The position numbers and the translations under genes are program-made. Shown in pieces: positions 10,812-22,023 of a stretch of DNA of 64,000 nt. This DNA comes from Candidatus Caldarchaeum sp. Lineage in GTDB: Archaea; Thermoproteota; Nitrososphaeria_A; Caldarchaeales; Caldarchaeaceae. Numbering within the stretch: the first letter of the stretch is position 1; each line of letters begins with the position of its first letter. The notes beneath the pieces were generated by a model that was not told the DNA's origin, ran no database searches, and saw only the letters and a program-made list of their open reading frames with translations. Location of the stretch: assembly GCA_038831915.1 (NCBI GenBank), contig JAWBKB010000004.1, positions 32,001 through 96,000 of the forward strand, given 5' to 3'.

Positions 10812-11078
10812 CTATGATTCACCCCATACAACTCTGTAATAAACCGCTTCGCCGGCTGTCTGAGACCTTCGAGTTATTTTGATGATGTCGCCGACTTTTG
10901 CCTTCAGCCTTTTCACCATCGGGTCTGACGGAAGAATGTACGGAAGCTTGTCACGGCTGACGCCGAGACGGGCTAATAGCTCATCGGCCTCACGCGGGGA
11001 CAAAACTTCATGCTTCGGAACCAACACATGCAGTGATATGTCTATTTCATGTTGTTTCTCGGCTTTTTCCTTTACCAT
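10812..11078 (-). CDS. rpoH: RNA polymerase subunit Rpo5 (H)
   Basis: HVLVPKHEVLS, LPYILPSDP, GDIIKITRRSQTAGEAVYYRVV. Confidence 0.97.
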   Translation of the reverse strand: MVKEKAEKQHEIDISLHVLVPKHEVLSPREADELLARLGVSRDKLPYILPSDPMVKRLKAKVGDIIKITRRSQTAGEAVYYRVVWGES

Positions 11079-11194
11079 GGCCTACACCAAAACAATTACG
11101 CTGTTTTCATACGTCTGAACACTCACTATTAAGTCTTGATTCAAATTTGAAACTTTCGCAACGCATAATTAATGGTTTACGTCTAGATAGGTGG

Positions 11195-11626
11195 ATGGTT
11201 GAACGCAGTTCTCGTCGAATACGTATCCTACTGGCGAAACCCGGGCTGGATGGACACGACCGGGGGTTGCTGATTTTGGCGCGGGCTTTCCGCGACGCAG
11301 GATTTGAGGTGGTTTACGGAGGCATTTTACGCAGTCCCGAAGAAGTGGTAGAAATAGCTGTCCAGGAAGATGTAGACGTGGTCGCTTTAAGCCTACACAA
11401 CGCAGACCATATACCTAATTTCATCAAAGTTGCACGGCTTCTGAAGGAGAAAGGAGCCCACGACATTTTAGTGGTTGGCGGCGGCATAATCCCACCTGAG
11501 CACAAACCCATTCTCGAAAAAGAAGGAATAACCGGAAATTTCGGCCCTGGCACACCTCTTCAAACCATCGTCGATCACATCTATGAAAGAGTAAAACGTG
11601 AAAAATGGGGAATCATTAAAACTTAG
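11195..11626 (+). CDS. Cobalamin-binding small subunit of an acyl-CoA mutase (IcmB/Mcm C-terminal type)
   Basis: [11 protein letters not shown] (DxHxxG B12 motif), SL and GGGIIP motifs; likely start ATG 11195. Confidence 0.92.
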
Positions 11627-13404
11627 ATGATCAAGGGTTCACGCCAAGTACCGAAAACTTCTCTGCCCACGTTCATTATCTCTTCGAGAGTCGCGTAGTT
11701 TTTCACAGCATCGATAATGTACGGCATGACGTTTGTCGCAGGGTTTTCGAAAGCTTTTCGAAGATTTTCCAGTGATTGTTGGACTTCTGAGTTGTCCCTG
11801 CTGTTTTTGACCTCGTTCAGCCGTTGAATTTGTTTTCTCGCAACGGATTCGTCAACTACGAGGTAGCTGATTTGCTTTTCCTCGGCGACAACGTATTTGT
11901 TAACTCCCACGACCACTTCTTCGCCCTTCTCGTAGGCTATCTGAGTCCTGTAAGCTGATTCATGTATTTCACGTTGGGGATATCCGGCTTTGATAGCCGC
12001 GAGCATTCCGCCAAGCTCGTCTATTTTCTCGAAATATTTCACAGCTTCCTCCACCATTTGCTGCGTAAGCCATTCGACGTAGTATGAGCCGGCGAGGGGG
12101 TCGATGGTGTCGGCCACACCCGTTTCTTCCGCGATGATTTGCTGTGTTCGCAACGCTATCATCACGGCTTCTTCTGTGGGAAGGGCCCATGCTTCGTCGT
12201 AGCTGTTCGTGTGCAGCGACTGTGTTCCTCCGAGAACAGCGGCCAACGCTTCGATGGTTGTCCTGACTATGTTGTTCAATGGCTGTTGCCATGTCAGAGA
12301 TGCTCCTGAAGTTTGTGTATGAAACCTCAAAGTTAACGACCTTGGATTCCGAGCTCCGTAATATTCTCTCAGAACCATGGCCCAAATTTTCCTTGCTGCC
12401 CGGAATTTTGCTATCTCTTCGAAGAAGTTCATGGTTGAGTTGAAGAAGAATGAAAAACGTGGAACGAATTCGTCGACTTTCATGCCGGCTACGATTCCTA
12501 GGTCTACGTATGTGAAGCCATCCATCAAAGTGAAGGCGAGTTCCTGCAACGCGGTGGCTCCTGCCTCACGTATGTGATAGCCGCTGATGCTGATGAAATG
12601 CCAGTTCGGCATATGTTGGGTGCAGTACTGCATCATGTCGCGAATGATTCGTAGATGTGCTTCCGGCGTGAACGCCCATTCCTTCTGCGCTATATACTCC
12701 TTTAAAATGTCTGTCTGCGTCGTGCCTCTCAGCTGTCGCTGGCTAACTCCCTGCTTTTCCGCTACGGCGATAAGCATGGCGAGCAGAACCGCGGCCGGCG
12801 CGTTAATCGTCATCGAAACACTTGCCGAGTTTAGCGGAATCCCGCTGAAAATTATTTCCATGTCTTTCAACGTGGCCACTGAGACTCCGCATTTTCCTAC
12901 TTCCCCTTCACTCCGCGGGTTGTCTGGGTCGTAACCATAGAGTGTCGGCATGTCGAAAGCGACGCTTAACCCTGTTTCACCGTGTTCAAGAAGAAATTTG
13001 AAACGTTTGTTTGTTTCCTCCGGTGTTCCAAACCCGGCGAACTGTCTCATAGTCCAAAGCTTTCCACGATACATGGTCGTGTAAACTCCACGCGTATACG
13101 GATACATGCCGGGATAACCCAGATCGAATTCATAGTCGAGCCAAGAAACGTCGAGCGGGGTGTATATCGGCTTGACTTCAAAACCGGAGGACGTTTTGAA
13201 GACCTTTTTCCGTTCATTCGAAACGGAAACCGCTTGGCTGTATTGTTTCGCCCAATCTGCAAACGATCGTTTAATTGTCTCCAAAGCTTCAACGTTGAAT
13301 AGAGATGTTTTACGGTGTTTTGTTTGGAATTCATGTATTTTTCGCCGCCAGTACGGTAGCCTTTTATTGCTGGCTTCAGAGAGATTATGGGAAATGTCGT
13401 CCAC
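11623..13404 (-). CDS. B12-dependent acyl-CoA mutase large (substrate-binding) subunit with isobutyryl-CoA mutase-like signature
   Basis: [62 protein letters not shown]. Confidence 0.92.
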
Positions 13405-13437
13405 GTATTGTATATACCGTTGCTCGGTTATAAGAAT

Positions 13438-14364
13438 TCAGTTTTTACGGAAAACGGTTCGGATGATTTTTAGGCTGGCACGGTATGGATTCTGCTCCTG
13501 TTCAGCTATTTTCGCGATAATCTGCTGGTTTTCTGGTTTTTGAAGCGCCGTTCGAACCTGTTCCTGGACGATGGTCTTGATTTCAGCGATCAACTGTGAT
13601 TTGCGACGTTTTTCGACTTCACCCGAAGCCCGAAGTTGCTGCCATGTATGAAGTATTGCATCGGCGAGCTCTTTCGCTCCTTCACCTGTCAATGCATTCG
13701 TTCTCAACACGGCGACGTGGTCTTTTCTTCGGTGCAGAAATGTTTCAAGCATTTTGGCTGTTAGCGATGACCTTGGGTCGTCTGATTTGTTGACAACGTA
13801 CAAGTCTCCTACTTCGAGCAGGCCTGCTTTGACTGCTTGAATGCTGTCGCCCATGTCTGATGTAACAACGACGACAACCAGGTCGACCGTTTCGTGAACC
13901 GCGACGTCGGTTTGTCCGGCTCCGGCTGTTTCGAGAATTATGATGTCGTAGCCGGCGGCGTCGAAGATGCGTAGAACTGGTTTCACAGGGAGCGCGATGC
14001 CTCCGCCTGCGCCGCGTGTCGCCATGCTGCGGATGAAAATTTGTTTGTCGGCCGGTAGATGCGTCATTCGCACTCTGTCGCCGAGGACGGAGCCTCCTGT
14101 GAATAGGCTGGAGGGGTCGACGGCGAGAACGGCTACGCTGAGCCCCGATTTTTTGAAATGTTCTAGTGTTTTTCCGATGAGAGTGCTTTTGCCTGAGCCG
14201 GGAGGGCCGATAAACCCAATCACGGGAACACCTCTTACCTTCGAAGAAATTTTAGTTACAAAATCCCATGCGTTGGGTGACAGAGATTCTACCAGGCTAA
14301 TCGACTTGGCCACAGCTTTGACGTCTCCAGCCAAAACCAGTTGAACAAGCTCGTCGACGTCCAA
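13438..14364 (-). CDS. meaB: MeaB/ArgK-family G-protein chaperone of the B12 mutase
   Basis: GPPGSGKST, AVDPSS.FTGGSVLGDRVRM, FIRSMATRG, ETAGAGQ, VNKSD; TTG start at 14364 follows an AGGAG RBS-like sequence (the longer predicted ORF overlaps the tRNA fragment). Confidence 0.92.
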   Translation of the reverse strand: MDVDELVQLVLAGDVKAVAKSISLVESLSPNAWDFVTKISSKVRGVPVIGFIGPPGSGKSTLIGKTLEHFKKSGLSVAVLAVDPSSLFTGGSVLGDRVRMTHLPADKQIFIRSMATRGAGGGIALPVKPVLRIFDAAGYDIIILETAGAGQTDVAVHETVDLVVVVVTSDMGDSIQAVKAGLLEVGDLYVVNKSDDPRSSLTAKMLETFLHRRKDHVAVLRTNALTGEGAKELADAILHTWQQLRASGEVEKRRKSQLIAEIKTIVQEQVRTALQKPENQQIIAKIAEQEQNPYRASLKIIRTVFRKN

Positions 14365-14412
14365 CCCACTCCTTTTACCCTGCAACAGATAATAACTTTC
14401 ACCGCACCAAAC

Positions 14413-14424
14413 AAAATTTAAATT
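14413..14424 (+). promoter_or_regulatory. BRE/TATA-like promoter upstream of the tRNA 5' half
   Basis: AAAATTTAAATT ends about 24 nt before GGGCCCA at 14448, the usual archaeal TATA-to-start spacing. Confidence 0.55.
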
Positions 14425-14447
14425 GAAACCAGCCGACACCGATACAC

Positions 14448-14482
14448 GGGCCCATAGCTCAGCCAGGTTAGAGCGGCCGGCT
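14448..14482 (+). tRNA. Isolated 5' half of a tRNA gene (Lys-like; anticodon and 3' half missing)
   Basis: GGGCCCA-TA-GCTC-AGCCAGGTTA-GAGC-G-GCCGG-CT reads as acceptor 5' strand, D arm and anticodon-stem 5' strand up to U33, then breaks into AT-rich unrelated sequence; no matching T arm or 3' acceptor strand seen in the window. Confidence 0.8.
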
Positions 14483-14894
14483 ACGATATTATATTCTTTG
14501 ATGTGATGTTGTTCTTCTTTTTTCTCGGCTTTTTTCTTAATACTCTGTTGCGGTAGGGACATCTATCCCTGTTCTCGAACGTTTGATGGCATACACTGCA
14601 GAATGACTGTCCTCTGCTGTATTGTGGATGGATGCCTGAGGGTATGGAAGGAGATTCTTCATAGTCTTTATAGTTGAATCGTGGTGTTCCATCCTCAACC
14701 CACACATCTATCCTAATCTGTCTCCCGTCGTTAGCCTCGTAATGAGGCAGGTTTTTAAACATGCTGGGTATTCTAAGCCTAAAACCAGCCGATACATCGT
14801 ATCTTCCTTTAAAATCCTCCCCCTTACACAACCACCATGATACCATGTCTTCAGCATTTCGTGAAAGATGGTAATTTGCTCCAGTAAGCTGCAC
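14481..14894 (-). CDS. Hypothetical protein (ORFan, C-terminal CxxC..C and basic tail)
   Basis: 137-aa open frame in the CpG-poor island; FCSVCHQTFENRDRCPY; its stop codon overlaps the tRNA-half breakpoint. Confidence 0.45.
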   Translation of the reverse strand: MQLTGANYHLSRNAEDMVSWWLCKGEDFKGRYDVSAGFRLRIPSMFKNLPHYEANDGRQIRIDVWVEDGTPRFNYKDYEESPSIPSGIHPQYSRGQSFCSVCHQTFENRDRCPYRNRVLRKKPRKKKNNITSKNIIS

Positions 14895-14912
14895 AAGGGT
14901 TACGGATACGTC

Positions 14913-15640
14913 TTAGACATGATTGAAACCCCAGTGGTCTAGGTCTGTTGTGCTGAAGGTTCTGAACTCCCTGACCATGACGTAGTCTAGGTCTGTTAAG
15001 AAGGTCATGGACCCTATCCTGCTTCCGTCATCGCCTTTGAAGACTGCTTTTATTCTAAGCTCGGCCTTAAGCCTTCCGACCGGAGAGTCCTGAGGAGGAT
15101 TGACACTCAGGTTGAAGTATGTGTCGAGGGGCTTGGGTAGACCCTGCCCCGTGCAGATTGCCAGAACCCTATAGGCCACTCATACCCCGACACCATAAGC
15201 TTTATGCTTGTTATGTTGAAGACACCCTGCTCGAAGTTCTTCAGCCTGACCAAACCCCATCCAGCTCCTCCAGCATGTATGTCTCCCTGCCAGCTGAGAA
15301 GGTCTGAGACAACCCTCCAAAACCCACCAGCCTCCCTCAAAAGACATACTGTGAAAACCTCTCCTATTGAGAACCTTCTCTCACCATGGGTAAACCTATA
15401 ACCGCTTCCAGTAATATAATAGGTGTAGTGCCATGCGTAGCCCTGTATCTCATCATAACCCGTCATGTTTATGACTGACGAGGCCCTGTGGCCTGGGTTA
15501 TCTAAGTTGACAGAGGCTCCTACTATGGGCTGCTGGTTAGAGCAGTCCAAAACCCTTACATAAAACTTACCGTATGGTGTTCCAGAAGGGGAAGTGGTGC
15601 CCGCACTGCAGCAACATAGTTGAGAGGCTGTACCAAGCCT
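14913..15640 (-). pseudogene. Frameshifted remnant of a beta-rich (probably surface/secreted) protein gene
   Basis: Overlapping frames 15107..15550 and 14913..15179 read as consecutive pieces (VRVLDCSNQQPIVGASV..; ..YFNLSVNPPQDSPVGRLKAEL), resembling carboxypeptidase-regulatory/Ig-like folds; the upstream part is also broken. Confidence 0.45.
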
Positions 15641-16186
15641 ATAGTGACAGGGTTGTGTTCATAATAGTGGCCGGGGGTATACAGGTTGTGTGAAGGCTAG
15701 TTGAAGCGGCTCAGGAGGCTGAGAAACATGATAGTGTCAATCATATAGTTTTAGACAACTGTTGTAATATCATGCCTATTTTTAGATAGCTGTCGAAGCA
15801 AAAATTGTCATGAAAACTCTACGGTGTTTCCTACGCTTCAACAGCCATTACTATGGGTTCTGCTGCTTTGGGCAAATTGGTGTTCGACGGCTGTCGTTCG
15901 TCTGAAACAACACCTGATTCACGTAAATTTCGGCTTTCTACACAGTGTTTTCTCCATGTGTTATGGTAGTACGTTTCGGAGAATTTTTGACATTTTGAAA
16001 CCCTGCCTAAATCCCTGAAGTTTCGCCTACCCACAGAGGTGGAGTGTAAAAATAATGACGCTTTACGTCAAACGTCTAAGCATAATCAGTACAACCTTAG
16101 CAAAACCTGTCACTGCTCTCCAGTGTTTCGCCTCCACAGTACATTTATCTGCTTAAATCCATGTGAGTTGAACAAACATGTAATGA

Positions 16187-16361
16187 GCGGGACGATGGTC
16201 CCGTGATGGAAGACCTGAGGCCATCCCCTCCGGACGGGGAAGGGATGTGAAGGCTTAGGGTCGTCCCGCGAACACACATGGGAAAACTCCGCCAAAAACA
16301 AACCCTCACCCACACCCGCCGTAAAAGGCGGCCACCCCATTCAGAGATATCGTGGGATGGC
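16187..16361. other. Cluster of GC-rich hairpins (possible ncRNA or transposon-end remnant)
   Basis: GCGGGACGA(16187)..TCGTCCCGC(16269) stem enclosing CATCCC..GGGATG; CCGCC-GTAAAA-GGCGG (16316-16331); GCCACCCCAT..GTGGGATGGC. Confidence 0.5.
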
Positions 16362-16584
16362 GGGGGAAAGTTTGGCTGGAACCAGTCCTTGGGACGGTTC
16401 GCTCGGACCGACAGGCGTGCAGTAGGGAGACAGACGATTAAGATAACATCCAGAAGATGATAGACGACGTCCTCCACATCCATTCCCAAACACCCCTCAA
16501 CATTTTCCCCGATGGGAGGGCCTTCCGCTGGAGAACGGTTCTTCAATACTCTGGCTGGAGGCTATGAAGAAATGACTACCCCGA

Positions 16585-16600
16585 AAAGAGGCTTATAAAC
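16585..16600 (+). promoter_or_regulatory. Putative BRE-TATA promoter for the IS110-like gene
   Basis: AAAGAGGCTTATAAAC about 15-20 nt before the homology start at about 16615, compatible with a leaderless transcript. Confidence 0.45.
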
Positions 16601-16614
16601 CTCTCGGGAGAGAA

Positions 16615-17394
16615 GTAAGAAGGTTCTTCGTTGATGTTCACACGTCTGCAAACGGTCGTAGAGGGAAGGCGCATCTTGTCTTCGACGGACATCAGTGTGT
16701 TAAGACGTCTCGTCTTGTGGATGTTCCCGCAGGTGAAGGTGATGAGGTCTACGTTGACGTCATACCTTCAACCATGTATGACGATGTTTCTACGCTTCTA
16801 AGCCGTGGAGTCAGGGTTTTCAGGCTGAGGAGAACAGACATCATAGCCGCTTACAGAGACAGGTTCTCACTACCGAAGAACGACGAAAACGACGCTAAAA
16901 TACTATCGATGGTTGAAGGCGAATGCTTCGTGGACGTTTCAGCAAAATACGTGGAACTGATGAAACTCTTAGAAGAATACAACAAACAACTCAACCTCCT
17001 AAAACTGTTGAAACAGTTCAAAACATCCGCAGAAGCTATAAAACCCATACGTAGAAACAAAAACAGGCTGGCACGACAGATAATAAGCATGGCAACGAAC
17101 ACAATAAGCATATACAGGCCTTTATGCGAGACTCTCGGTTTATCAGACGACTGTCTCTATGGAAAGGTTGCTCTAGCAGACCTCCTACTACACGTAGACT
17201 TCACGACTGGTCTGAGAAAAATCATCTGCTACACCGGACTCTACAAACCAAACAACCGCAAATACAACCATCGACTGAAACAGGCTGCCCACTCCCTTGC
17301 ATTAAGCCACTACAGGAAAAACAAGGTCAAAGCCAGACACATACGAAAACTCCTAAAAACAATCAAACAAACAATAGCTGGAGGCCCGGCCTGA
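16615..17394 (+). CDS. IS110-family (DEDD RuvC + truncated Tnp_20/Nop-like domain) recombinase/nuclease, about 260 aa
   Basis: Frame is open from 16576; reads (V)RRFFVDVH..EVYVD..LPKNDENDAKILS (IS110 GID / E / KTDxxDA pattern), a coiled-coil linker, then ICYTGL..YNHRLK (AYAGL..GNxxLR-like). First canonical start is GTG 16717, downstream of the first catalytic Asp; codon 16615 is GTA. Confidence 0.75.
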   Translation, partial: VRRFFVDVHTSANGRRGKAHLVFDGHQCVKTSRLVDVPAGEGDEVYVDVIPSTMYDDVSTLLSRGVRVFRLRRTDIIAAYRDRFSLPKNDENDAKILSMVEGECFVDVSAKYVELMKLLEEYNKQLNLLKLLKQFKTSAEAIKPIRRNKNRLARQIISMATNTISIYRPLCETLGLSDDCLYGKVALADLLLHVDFTTGLRKIICYTGLYKPNNRKYNHRLKQAAHSLALSHYRKNKVKARHIRKLLKTIKQTIAGGPA

Positions 17395-17516
17395 CAACGG
17401 GGAAAAACCAGATGAAGGCCGGGCAATAGAGCGCCAAACGCCATATAGGCGATACGCCAGGCAATTCACGGTTTTCATCCAGCTTCCCAGACGTTGCCAG
17501 ATGAAGGGCCTCCAGC
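17377..17516 (+). ncRNA. Candidate guide/bridge(seek)-type structured RNA downstream of the IS110-like gene
   Basis: Perfect 11-bp IR 17377-87/17506-16, perfect 9-bp IR 17384-92/17416-24, direct repeat CCAGATGAAGG at 17408 and 17497, internal CGCC-ATATA-GGCG hairpin, GGCAA/TTGCC stem. Confidence 0.5.
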
Positions 17517-17650
17517 CAAACTCTCCCCTCATTTTTCCCTTTCGGACATATTCTTATATAAGCGCCGTTGGCTTATTTAGCTAGGGGCTCTATTCCTGGA
17601 GTTGTTTGAACGTATTTAAATAACGGCGTTATAAATCGTGCGATAGAACC

Positions 17651-18424
17651 ATGGAACTCAAAATAGTAGACCTCTACGCCAGCGTAGAAGGACGACAGAT
17701 TCTCAAAGGCGTAAACCTCACCGTCAGAGAGGGTGAAATACACAGCCTCATGGGGCCGAACGGCTCGGGGAAAAGCACTTTGGCGTCCATCATAATGGGT
17801 CATCCAAAATACACAGTCGACAGCGGAGACATCCTACTCGACGGCGAAAGCATCGTAGACCTATCCCCTGACGAAAGAGCACGCCGAGGCCTCTTCCTCG
17901 CATTCCAATATCCCGTCGAAATTTCTGGAGTCACCCTCGCTAACTTCCTCCGCAGAGCTTACATCAACATGAAATACAGCAGAGAAGCCGACAAATCAAA
18001 AATCAGTGTCCCCGAATTTCAAAAGCTCCTAAGAGAAAAAATAGAGATGCTGAAGCTCGACCCGTCCATCGCACGACGCTATCTCAACGAAGGTTTTTCG
18101 GGAGGTGAGAAGAAACGCTGCGAAATCCTCCAGATGGCCATTCTTTCACCACGTATCGCCATTTTGGACGAAACTGATTCAGGACTCGACATCGATGGTG
18201 TCAAAATCGTCGCCGAAGGAGTTAGAACAATTTCGCAGAAAACAGGAATGGGAGCACTCGTAATCACACATTACCAGCGAATACTCAATTATCTTAAGCC
18301 AGACATCGTTCACGTTATGTATGGGGGACGCATCGTCGAAACAGGAGCTCAAGATCTCGCTCATTTGCTCGAAGAAAAAGGGTATAGTGTTATTGAGCAG
18401 AAGTACGGCCCGCCTAACGGCTGA
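17651..18424 (+). CDS. sufC: Fe-S cluster assembly ATPase SufC
   Basis: MGPNGSGKSTLA, GLFLAFQYPVEI, RYLNEGFSGGEKKRCEILQM, LDETDSGLDID. Confidence 0.96.
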   Translation: MELKIVDLYASVEGRQILKGVNLTVREGEIHSLMGPNGSGKSTLASIIMGHPKYTVDSGDILLDGESIVDLSPDERARRGLFLAFQYPVEISGVTLANFLRRAYINMKYSREADKSKISVPEFQKLLREKIEMLKLDPSIARRYLNEGFSGGEKKRCEILQMAILSPRIAILDETDSGLDIDGVKIVAEGVRTISQKTGMGALVITHYQRILNYLKPDIVHVMYGGRIVETGAQDLAHLLEEKGYSVIEQKYGPPNG

Positions 18425-19145
18425 TCGGCGTCGTTGGAATTCTCGCCCTAACGGCTTTGTACACTGGTATTGCGACAGCTGAACCCACGACGACCTGGCC
18501 GATGTTTAATGGAATTTCGGCGACTGGCACGATGTCAGGCAACACTCCGAGCCACACCGCTAGCATCTCATAGAGGAAGTAACCTGTCACCATTACGAGT
18601 CCCGCTGCAAGAAGCGATATGACGAGCCATGCTTCAACCTCTTTTCGGCGGAAAACGTAGTACGCTGGGACGGCGGAGCCGAGCAGCGCCAGAACCACCC
18701 ATGTCACGGGGCTGACGAGAACCGTGAATGTTTCTCCACCCAGTGGAGTTATTTCAACCAACCCGCTCATGAGGAAAATGCCGACGGAAATCAGAATTCC
18801 GAAGTAAACCCCCACCATGATGGCTGATAATAGCAATGCATTTGGGAAGTTGATTCGCCGCAGCCTTTGATATAGTATGGCGGCGACTGCTCCTTCAGCG
18901 GCTTTGATGACCAAAGTTCCAGGCGCAAAGACTGCGTAGCCGAGCACAATGTCAGCAATCGCTGAGCCTACTCCTCCAGCGAAAGCACCTACGAATGGCC
19001 CGCCGATGAGAGCCGCAAGATATACCATGGTTTCGCCGAGGTTGAAATAGCCACGGGTGAGCGGGAAGTAAACGCTCAAAACCATTGTTGCTGCCGCGAC
19101 CAACGCGGTGAAAACCACGGCCAATGCAATGGTGGAGCCTTTCAT
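18414..19145 (-). CDS. ECF transporter S component
   Basis: TRGYFNLGETMVY..GGVGSAIAD..APGTLVIK pattern; multi-TM. Confidence 0.85.
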   Translation of the reverse strand: MKGSTIALAVVFTALVAAATMVLSVYFPLTRGYFNLGETMVYLAALIGGPFVGAFAGGVGSAIADIVLGYAVFAPGTLVIKAAEGAVAAILYQRLRRINFPNALLLSAIMVGVYFGILISVGIFLMSGLVEITPLGGETFTVLVSPVTWVVLALLGSAVPAYYVFRRKEVEAWLVISLLAAGLVMVTGYFLYEMLAVWLGVLPDIVPVAEIPLNIGQVVVGSAVAIPVYKAVRARIPTTPISR

Positions 19146-19177
19146 AAGACGTCGGTGTGATTTTGGAATAATAAATT

Positions 19178-19744
19178 TTATGGCTTTTCAACCAATGAAA
19201 GCTGGAATGTTTTTTCGGAGGCTTCTGCTTTTCGCATTTTATCAACCATGTCACGGAGGTCGAGTTCGCGGTATCTGTCTGGAGCCGCTGACAAAGCCCT
19301 CAGCGCTCTTTTAATGATTGAATGGAATCCATTCCTGTCATTTTTCTGCAGATGTACATACGCCGCTGCCGTCAGAATAATACCGTGCAAAATTGTTTTT
19401 TCCTCACCTTTGGCCTCTTTCCACAGCGGTTCAAGTGCTTCATGAGCCTCCCAAAACCGCTCAGCGTTGAAGAGCTCCAGCGCCTTCACGAACTCCGCAT
19501 CCCTGTCGATTACAGTTTTTTCGACAAGCTCGACGACTTCGATTATCTCAAAGCCGTGGAGAATTGGATTTTCACCGCTCTGTACATCGATTTCAACATG
19601 GTTCGAAGCAACACGAACGTCGACGACTTTCAAACCCTGCGACCGTACGACTTCAATCAGCCGCCTCGAATCTTCAGGCCCATAGCCATCATTTCTAACG
19701 ATGATGATGAAACGCTTCATCTCGACGTAGTTTCCATTACCCAT
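19178..19744 (-). CDS. DUF309-domain protein
   Basis: LFNAERFWEAHEALEPLW..GII..AAAYVH motif. Confidence 0.85.
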   Translation of the reverse strand: MGNGNYVEMKRFIIIVRNDGYGPEDSRRLIEVVRSQGLKVVDVRVASNHVEIDVQSGENPILHGFEIIEVVELVEKTVIDRDAEFVKALELFNAERFWEAHEALEPLWKEAKGEEKTILHGIILTAAAYVHLQKNDRNGFHSIIKRALRALSAAPDRYRELDLRDMVDKMRKAEASEKTFQLSLVEKP

Positions 19745-20058
19745 TCGAGATAATCCTTGTTCACGTCGGAAAGCAGCAGCTCTAAAATCGCCGGGACCCT
19801 GTATGGATGCTCGGCCTTAACGACCTTTTTCAGTTCGTCAGCTTTCTCACGACTTGTCTTCATCACGAGAATAATTTCGTCCTCTACATGCAGTCTACCC
19901 TCCCAGAAGAGGAAGGATTTCCCATGCAAGGCGTTTATGCTCGCAGCCAACTTTCTCTCCATGAGGCTTTTGCACCAGGCTGCGTAATCGCGGTCCGCCG
20001 GGAAAGGCACATAAAGCATGCAGATCAATTTCACATCCAAAACCTCCAACCGTCTCAC
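19717..20058 (-). CDS. cutA: Divalent cation tolerance protein CutA
   Basis: KLAASIN..S..FWEG, E..LVMKT, HPYRVPAI, YLEW. Confidence 0.88.
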   Translation of the reverse strand: MRRLEVLDVKLICMLYVPFPADRDYAAWCKSLMERKLAASINALHGKSFLFWEGRLHVEDEIILVMKTSREKADELKKVVKAEHPYRVPAILELLLSDVNKDYLEWVMETTSR

Positions 20059-20109
20059 ATCTCACGGTGACATTAAAATTCTTGTAGAAAGCCTTTCTCT
20101 GGGAAAATT

Positions 20110-22023
20110 ATGTTACCATACGCGCCTTGGCTGGCGTGGATAACACCCCTCATCGGCAGCCTCTTCGTTCCTCTGGCCTTTCGCGGAGGAAAGAGGGTGG
20201 GAGAAATTTATTCTGTCCTCGTCGCGTTTGTCGCCGCTGCTTTCAGCCTCTCCATGATTCCAGACGTCTATGGGAAAGCGCGTGGAGAGGTTATAGAGGT
20301 GCCTTGGATACCTTTGGGCGGGGACCGTTACATCGAAGCGAGCCTGCTGGTCGACCCGCTGAGCGTCTTGATGGCCTCTATCGCGACGGGAATAGGCGCC
20401 CTAATCGTGCTTTACAGCGTTGGATACATGGCTCATGAAGACGGGCTGCCTCGTTACTACTTCTTTATGCTGTTTTTCATCGGAGGCATGACCCTTCTCG
20501 TCCTGTCTGAAAACCTGTTGATGCTATACATCGGATGGGAAATCGTCGGACTGTGCAGCTACGCCCTCATCGGTTTTTACAACAAAAAACCCGAAGCAAA
20601 CCACGCCGGCATCAAGGCTTTCGTGACGACAAGAATCGGAGACGCGTCAATGCTCGTTGGAATTGTGATTCTGTTTGTTGTTTTCGGCACATTCAGTTTC
20701 ACAGAGCTTGAAAAAGCCATGCTTAAAGGCATTCAGGAGGGAACTGTTTCAGCGGCGTTTCTATTCATACCGTTTCTACTGCTGTTTGGAGGAGCGGTTG
20801 GAAAGTCCGCGCAATTCCCGCTTCATGTTTGGCTTCCCGACGCCATGGAAGGCCCGACACCTGTTTCCGCGCTTATCCACGCTGCAACCATGGTCAAAGC
20901 AGGCGTATACCTCGTTGCCCGGATTATCTACACAGTCATCCCGTTCGAAGCCTTTCCACCGGCTCTTTTTGCAGACTGGTACCTCACCATCGCGCTAATC
21001 GCTGGCTTCACCGCATTCTTTGCAGCCACCATGGGCCTTGTATCGCCTGACATCAAACGGGTTATAGCCTATTCGACCATCAGCCAGCTTGGGCTTATGC
21101 TCGCCGCATTGGGAATGGCTTCTGAAATAGGCTGGTTCGGCGGTGTCTTTCACGTCTTAAGCCACAGCATCTTCAAAGCACTGCTATTCCTCGCAGCCGG
21201 GGCGGTCATCCACGCAGTTCACACAAACAACCTCGACGAAATGGGAGGCCTTCGCAACAAAATGCCTATCACATTCTGGACATCCACGGTGGGAGTTCTC
21301 TCCCTCGCAGGAGTGCCATTACTCAGCGGTTTCTGGAGCAAAGACATCATCATCGAATCATCCCTGAAATCAGCAAACTACGTCGTCTACCTTTTCATCG
21401 TAGGTGCATCAGTTTTGACCGTGGCATACAGCCTACGGTGGCTTTACAAAGTTTTCCTTGCACCGTCCAACCACGTCCATCATAACCATGTTCACGAAGC
21501 GCCGAAAGTAATGACTGTTCCGCTAATCATCCTCGCAGCACTTTCCGTAATCGTCGGCGTAACAGGACTCTGGTTCGAAGAAGAATTCCATCACTATCTC
21601 GGGCTGCATGGAAAATTCTCCGTAAGCCCCGCGACCTATGCAACCACTGCAGCCATTCTCGCAGTGGGCGGGGGGCTAGGATACATCTTCTACATCGGCG
21701 CTGTGCGAAACCCCGCGGACATAAGGCAAACACCACTCGGAGCATCACTACACAAACTTTTCATCAATAGATACTACATCGACGCATTTTACTACAGAGC
21801 CTTCGTCGAGGGGCTTGACAGACTTGCCTCAGCAATCCATAAATTCATAGAGCTGAAAGTAATTGATGGGTTCAACTACTTCATTTCACGCGTCACCGTA
21901 AGCTTCGTACAGGTTTTCCGAAATATTCAGACGGGAGAAAGCAACATTAACATTAGCGGCCTCATCATAGGTCTCGCAATCTTCCTTCTACTCATCCTAA
22001 GATTTCTGTACGGGCTTGGTTGA
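20110..22023 (+). CDS. nuoL: NADH:quinone oxidoreductase subunit L / MrpA-like antiporter subunit
   Basis: GWEIVGLCSY.LIGF, GKSAQFPLHVWLPDAMEGPTPVSALIHAATMVKAG, FWSKD, long C-terminal extension. Confidence 0.92.
   Translation: MLPYAPWLAWITPLIGSLFVPLAFRGGKRVGEIYSVLVAFVAAAFSLSMIPDVYGKARGEVIEVPWIPLGGDRYIEASLLVDPLSVLMASIATGIGALIVLYSVGYMAHEDGLPRYYFFMLFFIGGMTLLVLSENLLMLYIGWEIVGLCSYALIGFYNKKPEANHAGIKAFVTTRIGDASMLVGIVILFVVFGTFSFTELEKAMLKGIQEGTVSAAFLFIPFLLLFGGAVGKSAQFPLHVWLPDAMEGPTPVSALIHAATMVKAGVYLVARIIYTVIPFEAFPPALFADWYLTIALIAGFTAFFAATMGLVSPDIKRVIAYSTISQLGLMLAALGMASEIGWFGGVFHVLSHSIFKALLFLAAGAVIHAVHTNNLDEMGGLRNKMPITFWTSTVGVLSLAGVPLLSGFWSKDIIIESSLKSANYVVYLFIVGASVLTVAYSLRWLYKVFLAPSNHVHHNHVHEAPKVMTVPLIILAALSVIVGVTGLWFEEEFHHYLGLHGKFSVSPATYATTAAILAVGGGLGYIFYIGAVRNPADIRQTPLGASLHKLFINRYYIDAFYYRAFVEGLDRLASAIHKFIELKVIDGFNYFISRVTVSFVQVFRNIQTGESNINISGLIIGLAIFLLLILRFLYGLG

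Follow-up and report, generated by a model that had tools for sequence, protein, structure and literature searches.

The window analyzed here is a stretch of 64,000 nucleotides (nt) from Candidatus Caldarchaeum sp. (contig JAWBKB010000004.1, positions 32,001 to 96,000 of the forward strand), and it contains one copy of a mobile element that is multicopy in the genome of this hot-spring archaeon. The constant core of the element appears to consist of a gene for a protein of ~270 amino acids and a structured RNA that begins in the last codons of this gene. In the window copy, the main frame is open on the plus strand from 16576 to 17394 (272 codons, stop to stop) and presents the motifs FFVDVH, VYVDV, KNDENDA, and ICYTGLYKPNNRKYNHRLK. 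Alignments, a structural model, and fold and profile matches point to a serine-less RuvC protein with a coiled coil and a Nop-like domain. The structured RNA at the 3′ side spans 17376 to 17545 on the same strand. An inverted repeat of 18 nt (16363 to 16380 and 17511 to 17528) matches at 17 of 18 positions (94% complementary). The frame, its RuvC motifs, and the repeat had been reported in an original prediction made from the nucleotide sequence, and all of these features are real.

Searches of Pfam, NCBIfam, and PDB sequences returned nothing meaningful for the window protein, which has no Pfam match. A large protein collection contained 16 relatives, all of them “hypothetical proteins” of Candidatus Caldarchaeum or of Nitrososphaerota metagenome-assembled genomes, and a profile search retrieved 191 representative clusters at an E value of ≤1e-3 (125 at ≤1e-10 and 40 at ≤1e-30). 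These define a family of archaeal proteins of about 260 to 330 amino acids. Among 38 full-length members, chosen from the best 150 of the 191 clusters, PF01548 was detected below threshold in 5 (E values of 0.01 to 0.04), and PF02371, the transposase domain with the catalytic serine hairpin, was detected in none. The closest homologs are therefore not ordinary IS110 transposases but a separate family, as suspected in the original prediction. In an alignment of 52 sequences, K101 is invariant and D61 and D106 are each kept in at least 90%, whereas the SG serine loop is present in no sequence; the loop of IS110 is lost across the whole family and not from the window copy alone. The four-aspartate site proposed earlier, numbered here after the window protein P0001 as D20, D61, D103, and D106, is kept family-wide at D20, D61, and D106 and in the window's subfamily also at D103.

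Of 76 genomes of the class, 32 contain the family, each with between 1 and at least 33 copies, and even inside the genus it has a patchy distribution (8 of 12 genomes). Just 5 of the 76 have canonical PF01548. In the genome of the window, there are 7 protein-level and 11 DNA-level matches to the element, several of them at contig ends, and no canonical IS110 domains were found.

The AlphaFold2 model, computed with the family alignment as input, has a predicted local distance difference test score of 93.8 and a predicted template modeling score of 0.89, and the modeled architecture is that of a RuvC domain, a coiled coil, and a Nop-like domain. The best match among solved structures is TIGR-TasR (9mty_A; Foldseek E value of 3.4e-7; VIA-align Z of 14.3, with a root mean square deviation [RMSD] of 4.8 over 236 aligned residues). 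The C-terminal half of TasH gives a Z of 12.6 (RMSD of 3.0, VIA-align), and the IS110 recombinases ISCro4 and IS621 give Z values of 12.4 and 12.0, respectively, over about 245 residues (VIA-align). Phage RuvC (Z of 7.2, Foldseek/VIA-align) and Nop5 (Z of 6.5, C-terminal half only) are more distant. The predicted fold is thus RuvC/Nop-like, in line with the kinship originally proposed. The identity in the structural alignments is 12 to 17%.

By sequence, the family profile (A2) retrieved IS621 (E value of 0.0039) and ISCro4 (E value of 0.019) among PDB sequences and no TasR or TasH chain at an E value of ≤10. In the profile alignment to IS621, KSDENDA pairs with NKTDTVDA and the GL motif pairs with AGLTP. 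The RRYESGSSVR stretch of IS621 has no counterpart, which upholds the earlier statement that the SG loop is missing. Comparison of the profile with single IS110 fragments from the same class by hhalign was not significant. In the ESM Atlas, archaeal hypothetical clusters ranked first and IS110-domain clusters followed, which is a lead only.

Structured 3′ RNA and gene start

The structure of the 3′ RNA was obtained by RNAalifold from an alignment of 23 copies from three subfamilies. It comprises three helices (P1, P2, and P3), an apical loop with two variable segments, and a T-rich tail. P1 is formed by the last codons of the gene (GCUGGAGGC, 17377 to 17385) and GCCUCCAGC (17508 to 17516). In the alignment, 96.4% of the cells are paired, versus 31 to 57% when the partners are slid; compensatory changes occur in 11 of 27 pairs, and none of 500 shuffles attains the observed covariation score, although these controls flatter the structure somewhat, as it was derived from the same alignment. 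The many G-U pairs on the plus strand favor an RNA of that strand. The only raw RNA reads found, four from a related copy, cover 17358 to 17541, the first mate mapping to the minus strand, and metatranscriptome contigs contain related copies; together these are weak evidence of expression. Rfam contained nothing relevant for the window region or for five related loci.

The second strand of P1 is the right arm of the 17/18 inverted repeat, and the left arm belongs to a block that is carried by some copies only, so that the arms do not mark the ends of the element, as had been supposed. This upstream block (16146 to 16542, plus strand, on the 5′ side of the window copy) has 76 to 84% DNA identity with the region upstream of the gene in copies L023, L035, L036, and L037. 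All of its frames are broken by indels between the window and L036. The block is noncoding and travels with these copies only. The left arm (16363 to 16380) is absent from copies L014, L015, and L021.

A feature confined to the window's subfamily is an internal loop across which the stop codon CUGA (17392 to 17397) faces AGAUGA (17498 to 17505). As read from the alignment, the two resemble boxes D and C of a K-turn. The box C/D-like guides of the original prediction have a parallel in this subfamily alone and were discarded as a general feature of the family. We likewise rejected the idea that the A-rich inner loop pairs with either the T-rich tail or the right-end DNA: covariation is absent, and L032 and the copies of the complete genome G010 disagree.

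At the 5′ end of the gene, the main frame contains no ATG, GTG, or TTG between the TGA at 16573 to 16575 and the conserved FFVDVH; the earliest such codon, GTG 16717, lies downstream of this motif. The DNA of the surrounding block (16545 to 16653) is conserved even between the two protein subfamilies, which are only ~34% identical to each other in amino acid sequence. It contains a hairpin at 16580 to 16608, plus strand (CCCGA, AAA bulge, GAGG, loop CTTATAAA, CCTC, TCGGG), whose pairing was read from the sequence and which is nearly identical in both subfamilies. An ATG at 16572 to 16574 opens the −1 frame, followed by eight codons to a TAA (16596 to 16598) inside the hairpin loop. This leader frame (16572 to 16598, plus strand; ATG ACT ACC CCG AAA AGA GGC TTA TAA) encodes MTTPKRGL, and the main frame is +1 relative to it.

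Seventeen distinct hairpin-bearing copies with a recognizable FYxDxH were surveyed. The leader-ATG arrangement is found in 13 of them, including the window copy, with the ATG located 16, 19, 22, or 28 nt from the hairpin and always in the same phase. In the other four, the ATG is in frame (L028 and L036), absent (L026), or in another phase (L027). Some database homologs begin with MENCPRKEAYKPLG, that is, with an in-frame ATG, and the G010 copies have a plain ATG immediately ahead of RFYADIH. With this leader ATG conserved, neither the GTA start at 16615 nor the inactivation that had been deduced from it is confirmed. We infer that most copies are translated through a programmed +1 frameshift at TTA_TAA_A.

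Other routes to the main frame were considered and rejected. A GTA or leaderless start, with the TTATAAA loop as a TATA box, has no in-frame start at the expected distance, as the sole start there is an out-of-frame TTG/ATG at 16631/16634. As read from the sequence, a mini-intron of the bulge-helix-loop type in the 5′ hairpin would be removed by symmetric cleavage, which takes out 12 nt and does not restore the frame. Readthrough of the TGA, which would join the gene to the upstream frame orfA, is contradicted by the phase between the two reading frames, which varies among copies: those of the window type have an ATGA overlap at the junction, those of the L019 type have TAG-ATG, and L024 and L029 have a double TGA.

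Of orfA, the window copy retains the last codons (ILWLEAMKK, 16546 to 16575, plus strand), the TGA stop of which overlaps the leader ATG as ATGA. A full-length orfA of ~105 amino acids lies upstream of the gene in L014 (67 to 384), L024, and L029, where the C-terminal LW(L/T)E and the ATGA overlap recur. The five G010 copies (L072 to L076) have at this place a divergent open reading frame (ORF) of 113 amino acids without an assigned Pfam family, where other copies have the cooriented 105-amino-acid orfA. The 5′ module is thus interchangeable. Pfam holds no family for orfA, for the 113-amino-acid ORF, or for two ORFs next to the element in the window.

Guide segments and insertion sites

The apical loop of the RNA contains two hypervariable segments, A and B, with a hairpin between them and fixed motifs on both sides. 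The layout is GGCAAT-N9-AACG...GCGAT-N8/9-CAATGC in the window type and ATGAC-N9-GACGT...ATGAC-N9-GACGT in the G010 type. These segments match the DNA on either side of the copies that carry them, which gives direct support to the compact RNA-guided nuclease or recombinase guessed at originally.

The match is clearest in G010, whose five copies have a common unit of 1.3 to 1.6 kb. For each of the five, a sense match to one segment lies left of the unit, and a match to the reverse complement (rc) of the other lies right of it; nine of these matches are exact 9-mers, and one has a single mismatch. The element is inserted in either orientation, the left half-site corresponding to A in L072 and L075 and to B in L073, L074, and L076. 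L074 is truncated at the 5′ side yet correctly addressed. Outside G010, both half-sites were found in L080, L021, and, with one mismatch, L022. One half-site is exact in L023, L079, L028, L020, L016, and L081/L085 and has one mismatch in L019, L024, L027, and L017. In subfamily 1, rc(B) lies at an offset similar to that in the window copy (see below), exact in L021, L022, L023, C13/L016, and L079 and with one mismatch in L019, L024, and L027; this offset is +209 to +225 in most copies and +345 in L079. As a control, an exact 9-mer was found elsewhere in the same locus for 14 of 18 cognate segments, versus 3 of 144 noncognate segment-locus pairs.

The sister genomes G012 and G009 are empty at two loci that are filled in G010, so that the empty sites sought in the original prediction do exist. 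In them, A and rc(B) are joined with an overlap of 2 nt (2 to 3 nt when all sites are considered). The filled sites have a duplication of 4 bp, TATG in L075 and TTAA in L073, and the junctions of other copies are compatible with duplications of 3 to 5 bp. In the filled state, the half-sites are 1.5 to 2.5 kb apart. The five G010 targets have the centre ATTTA in common. The inserted unit has no fixed ends, since unique DNA of 2 to 85 nt on the left and 30 to 785 nt on the right accompanies it. This extra DNA was considered as a second repeat or as carried-over flank, and both were rejected, as the sequence is unique or almost unique in G010.

In the window copy, segment A (AGAGCGCCA, 17428 to 17436, plus strand) occupies the position in the apical loop that is homologous to segment A of other copies, and segment B (ACGCCAGG) lies at 17454 to 17461 (plus strand) in the same loop. 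The probable right half of the target site is CCTGGAGT (17595 to 17602, plus strand), which matches rc(B), CCTGGCGT, at 7 of 8 positions. From this point on, the sequence is homologous to what precedes sufC in relatives. The inserted unit probably has its right edge here. Within 11000 to 22000, there is no half-site that matches segment A. Since this half-site is missing and orfA is cut to its last codons, the left side of the copy has probably been rearranged. The element is absent from the sufC locus in all 13 orthologous loci examined (11 from the window's own genus), and the sequence ahead of sufC varies too much among relatives to yield a clean empty site.

Several minor features of the insertion loci were also observed. 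In L073 (G010:C1, ~689.9 to 690.2 kb), the 1.6-kb repeat unit is flanked on both sides by TTGTG and lies inside the larger inserted segment with the TTAA duplication; these nested flanks may reflect a history in two steps. A tRNA gene is located ~65 to 175 nt past the right-end motif, in either orientation, in 7 of 29 loci scanned (right ends of L015, L017, L023, L028, L029, L033, and L034). The right-end motif (GCCTCCAGCCAAAC.CTCCCC and T-rich tail) also terminates a different cassette in G000, at C1:~6981 (−), C4:~105969 (−, outside the window), and C15:~294 (+). The ORF of this cassette resembles, by eye, a LAGLIDADG homing endonuclease (LRGFFDSEGC...), and two of the cassettes directly adjoin a tRNA gene at its 3′ end.

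A candidate RNA-guided homing nuclease

Our preferred reading, to which we assign a probability of roughly 0.6, is that the locus is one copy of a selfish element, widespread in Caldarchaeales archaea, that is guided to its site by RNA and most likely acts as a homing nuclease. A probable dimer of the protein would bind the 3′ RNA, and the uninterrupted site would be recognized by pairing of one guide with each DNA strand, by analogy with the target-binding loop of IS110 and the tandem spacers of TIGR systems, which work in this way. The RuvC domain would then cut both strands with a short stagger, and host repair would let the element enter or reenter the cut site. Where a filled copy is present, this would occur as homing by recombination, and new sites would be reached by end-joining capture. 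Entry by repair would account for the variable ends, the two orientations, and the duplication of 3 to 5 bp. With one guide pair and no serine, a nuclease fits better than a two-loop recombinase, and a dimeric RNA-guided nuclease fits the architecture, the staggered duplication, the variable ends and orientations, and the single site per variant.

A true RNA-guided transposase or recombinase is rather unlikely in comparison. Here, the RNA would find the target, and the protein itself would join the element DNA, with the serine replaced by RuvC-type transesterification or by another nucleophile, such as the nearly conserved Tyr in YNHR. The 20 to 33 copies per genome and the patchy distribution are as expected of insertion sequences, the right-end block is conserved with sharp repeat boundaries, the ATTTA centre of the five G010 targets recalls the IS110 core, and by sequence the family is closer to IS110 than to TasR. 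Against this, the serine loop is absent, and the candidate tyrosine (Tyr230) is not invariant, being replaced by F, S, H, or R across the family. A second, donor-binding loop was not found in the RNA, the unit ends vary on both sides, both insertion orientations occur, and the truncated L074 is still correctly addressed.

It is less probable still that the guides serve the resident copy: the complex would bind the DNA flanking the element, or the empty site once restored, and thereby regulate excision, silence neighboring genes, or prevent reinsertion, with the movement being the work of something else. Catalytically dead TasR and TasA are RNA-guided repressors, according to a preprint (bioRxiv 10.64898/2026.09.09.750476), subfamily 2 is short of one acidic residue, and many copies adjoin promoters or tRNA genes. 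However, the joint site no longer exists once it is filled, as its halves are then 1.5 to 2.5 kb apart, and D20, D61, and D106 are kept family-wide. Finally, a decayed ordinary IS110/IS1111 copy, with the missing serine loop and start codon as damage, would agree with the lack of a canonical start before FFVDVH and with the seemingly rearranged left side of the window copy (truncated orfA and missing A half-site), but is already contradicted by the loss of the loop in all 191 representatives and 52 aligned sequences, the open frame of 272 codons, the recurrence of the leader ATG and hairpin in 13 of 17 copies from several genomes, and the rarity of canonical PF01548 (5 of 76 genomes of the class, and none in the window's own), and is very improbable.

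Several observations do weigh against the homing nuclease. The window copy has no left half-site, and its right half-site has one mismatch. In the more distant genome G018, a match of at least 10 nt was found for one segment in only three of five copies; one of these has an unexpected orientation, and another has both halves beyond the element. In subfamily 2, the third acidic residue, D103, is replaced by A or S, so that the four-aspartate site does not hold throughout. More than 30 copies per genome are easier to explain by a true transposase. L072 and L073 are 96% identical overall, yet most positions of both segments differ, and homing by itself leaves unexplained how each copy came to carry the guides of its own site. 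Such guides could be acquired by off-target capture at sites with a common core, followed by selection on the outer positions, or in a dedicated rewriting step. A bolder proposal, which we hold as a tentative one, is a third, undescribed branch of the IS110, TIGR-Tas, and Nop superfamily, in which an RNA-guided enzyme of ~270 amino acids with a single cis-encoded dual-guide RNA would move the element into the site specified by this RNA, and the element would have its own means of rewriting the two 9-nt guides. Rewriting at each new site would yield copies that are 96% identical with wholly different guides that match their flanks perfectly.

The IS110/IS1111 elements (IS621 and ISCro4) resemble the present element in the modeled RuvC-like DEDD domain, coiled coil, and helical RNA-binding domain (Z of 12), in the K-x-D-x-x-D-A motif, and in encoding a structured RNA in which the strands of an internal loop pair with both target strands around the insertion point. 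In the IS1111 group, the RNA is situated 3′ of the gene, as it is here. In contrast to IS110, the present family has neither the serine hairpin nor PF02371, and one guide loop was found in its RNA; a second variable or end-matching loop that would correspond to the donor loop of the bridge RNA was not found. Each copy has its own guides and a unique site, whereas the copies of an IS110 element have one target in common, and the variable unit ends and both orientations are further differences.

TIGR-TasR (9mty), the best structural match, likewise combines RuvC, coiled coil, and Nop without a serine domain. TasR is described by Faure et al. (2025, PMC12045711) as using two 9-nt spacers for opposite strands of one target, as is proposed here, and as leaving staggered ends, and some stem-loop tigRNAs have a hairpin between the spacers (bioRxiv 10.64898/2026.09.09.750476). 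The guides of TIGR-Tas form tandem arrays (usually 5 to 15 units), whereas each copy here has a single guide unit joined to the gene at its 3′ end, and Tandem Repeats Finder (minimum score of 30) found no tandem guide array anywhere in the window. The guides address the insertion site of the element itself, which is mobile and multicopy; the spacers overlap by 2 to 3 nt on a target of 15 to 16 bp, whereas those of TIGR-Tas abut on 18 bp; and the sequence profile matches IS621 and not TasR. In the Nop5 box C/D scaffold, the RuvC-like domain is inactivated, whereas D20, D61, and D106 and, in the window's subfamily, D103 are kept here.

TnpB and IscB (IS200/IS605) are also compact RuvC nucleases within mobile elements, with an omega RNA that overlaps the 3′ end of the gene. 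They share the role proposed here, in which the unoccupied site is cut and repair restores or spreads the element. They differ in that the present protein belongs to an unrelated fold context (Nop-like RNA-binding domain and coiled-coil dimer), that dual guides address both strands and are internal copies of both flanks, where those systems read out one flank, and that no TnpA partner was seen. At the level of concept, the element is also similar to homing endonuclease genes, where the recognition site is the uninterrupted target that is split by the insertion, with one site per variant and filled/empty polymorphism among relatives. It is comparable to group II introns as well, with a guide-flank match for each copy that recalls EBS-IBS pairing. 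In contrast to both, a short RNA and a RuvC protein would perform the recognition, and there is no intron, splicing, or reverse transcriptase.

Literature searches, together with passages from PMC12045711, PMC11213020, and two bioRxiv preprints, yielded no account of a serine-less, mobile, and self-addressed relative; this does not extend to supplementary tables such as TIGR-Tas table S1 (Nop-domain families), where the family is possibly listed. If the proposal is correct, bridge recombinases and TIGR-Tas nucleases would be linked by a natural, abundant, and mobile form, which bears on the question of their kinship posed in the TIGR-Tas and IS110/Nop5 papers. It would also mean that homing in archaea can be guided by RNA with a protein of ~270 amino acids and an 18-nt address, that is, by a very compact and apparently freely readdressable DNA-targeting module. 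The copy-specific guides constitute a natural guide-target table, with dozens of entries per genome, from which the targeting rules may be read. Should the role of the conserved leader with its stop in a hairpin be confirmed, it would add a rare archaeal example of programmed +1 frameshifting.

Sequences adjacent to the element in the window

Between a MeaB-like gene and the element, the window contains a second, unrelated repeat family (14448 to 15380), with 68 to 91% identity to at least eight other contigs and ORFs without a Pfam family. A short frame at 15584 to 15690 has a thioredoxin-like WCPHC motif, recognized by eye, and stops after ~36 codons. Its counterpart in L036 also has a stop, and the frame resembles a gene remnant.

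A stretch of 23 nt (16390 to 16412, minus strand) is single in every genomic locus compared here. In metatranscriptome contigs from other organisms (runs X17/X20), it occurs four times within 354 nt, and neighboring copies are 9 to 17 nt apart, which is an array-like arrangement beside the upstream block of the element.

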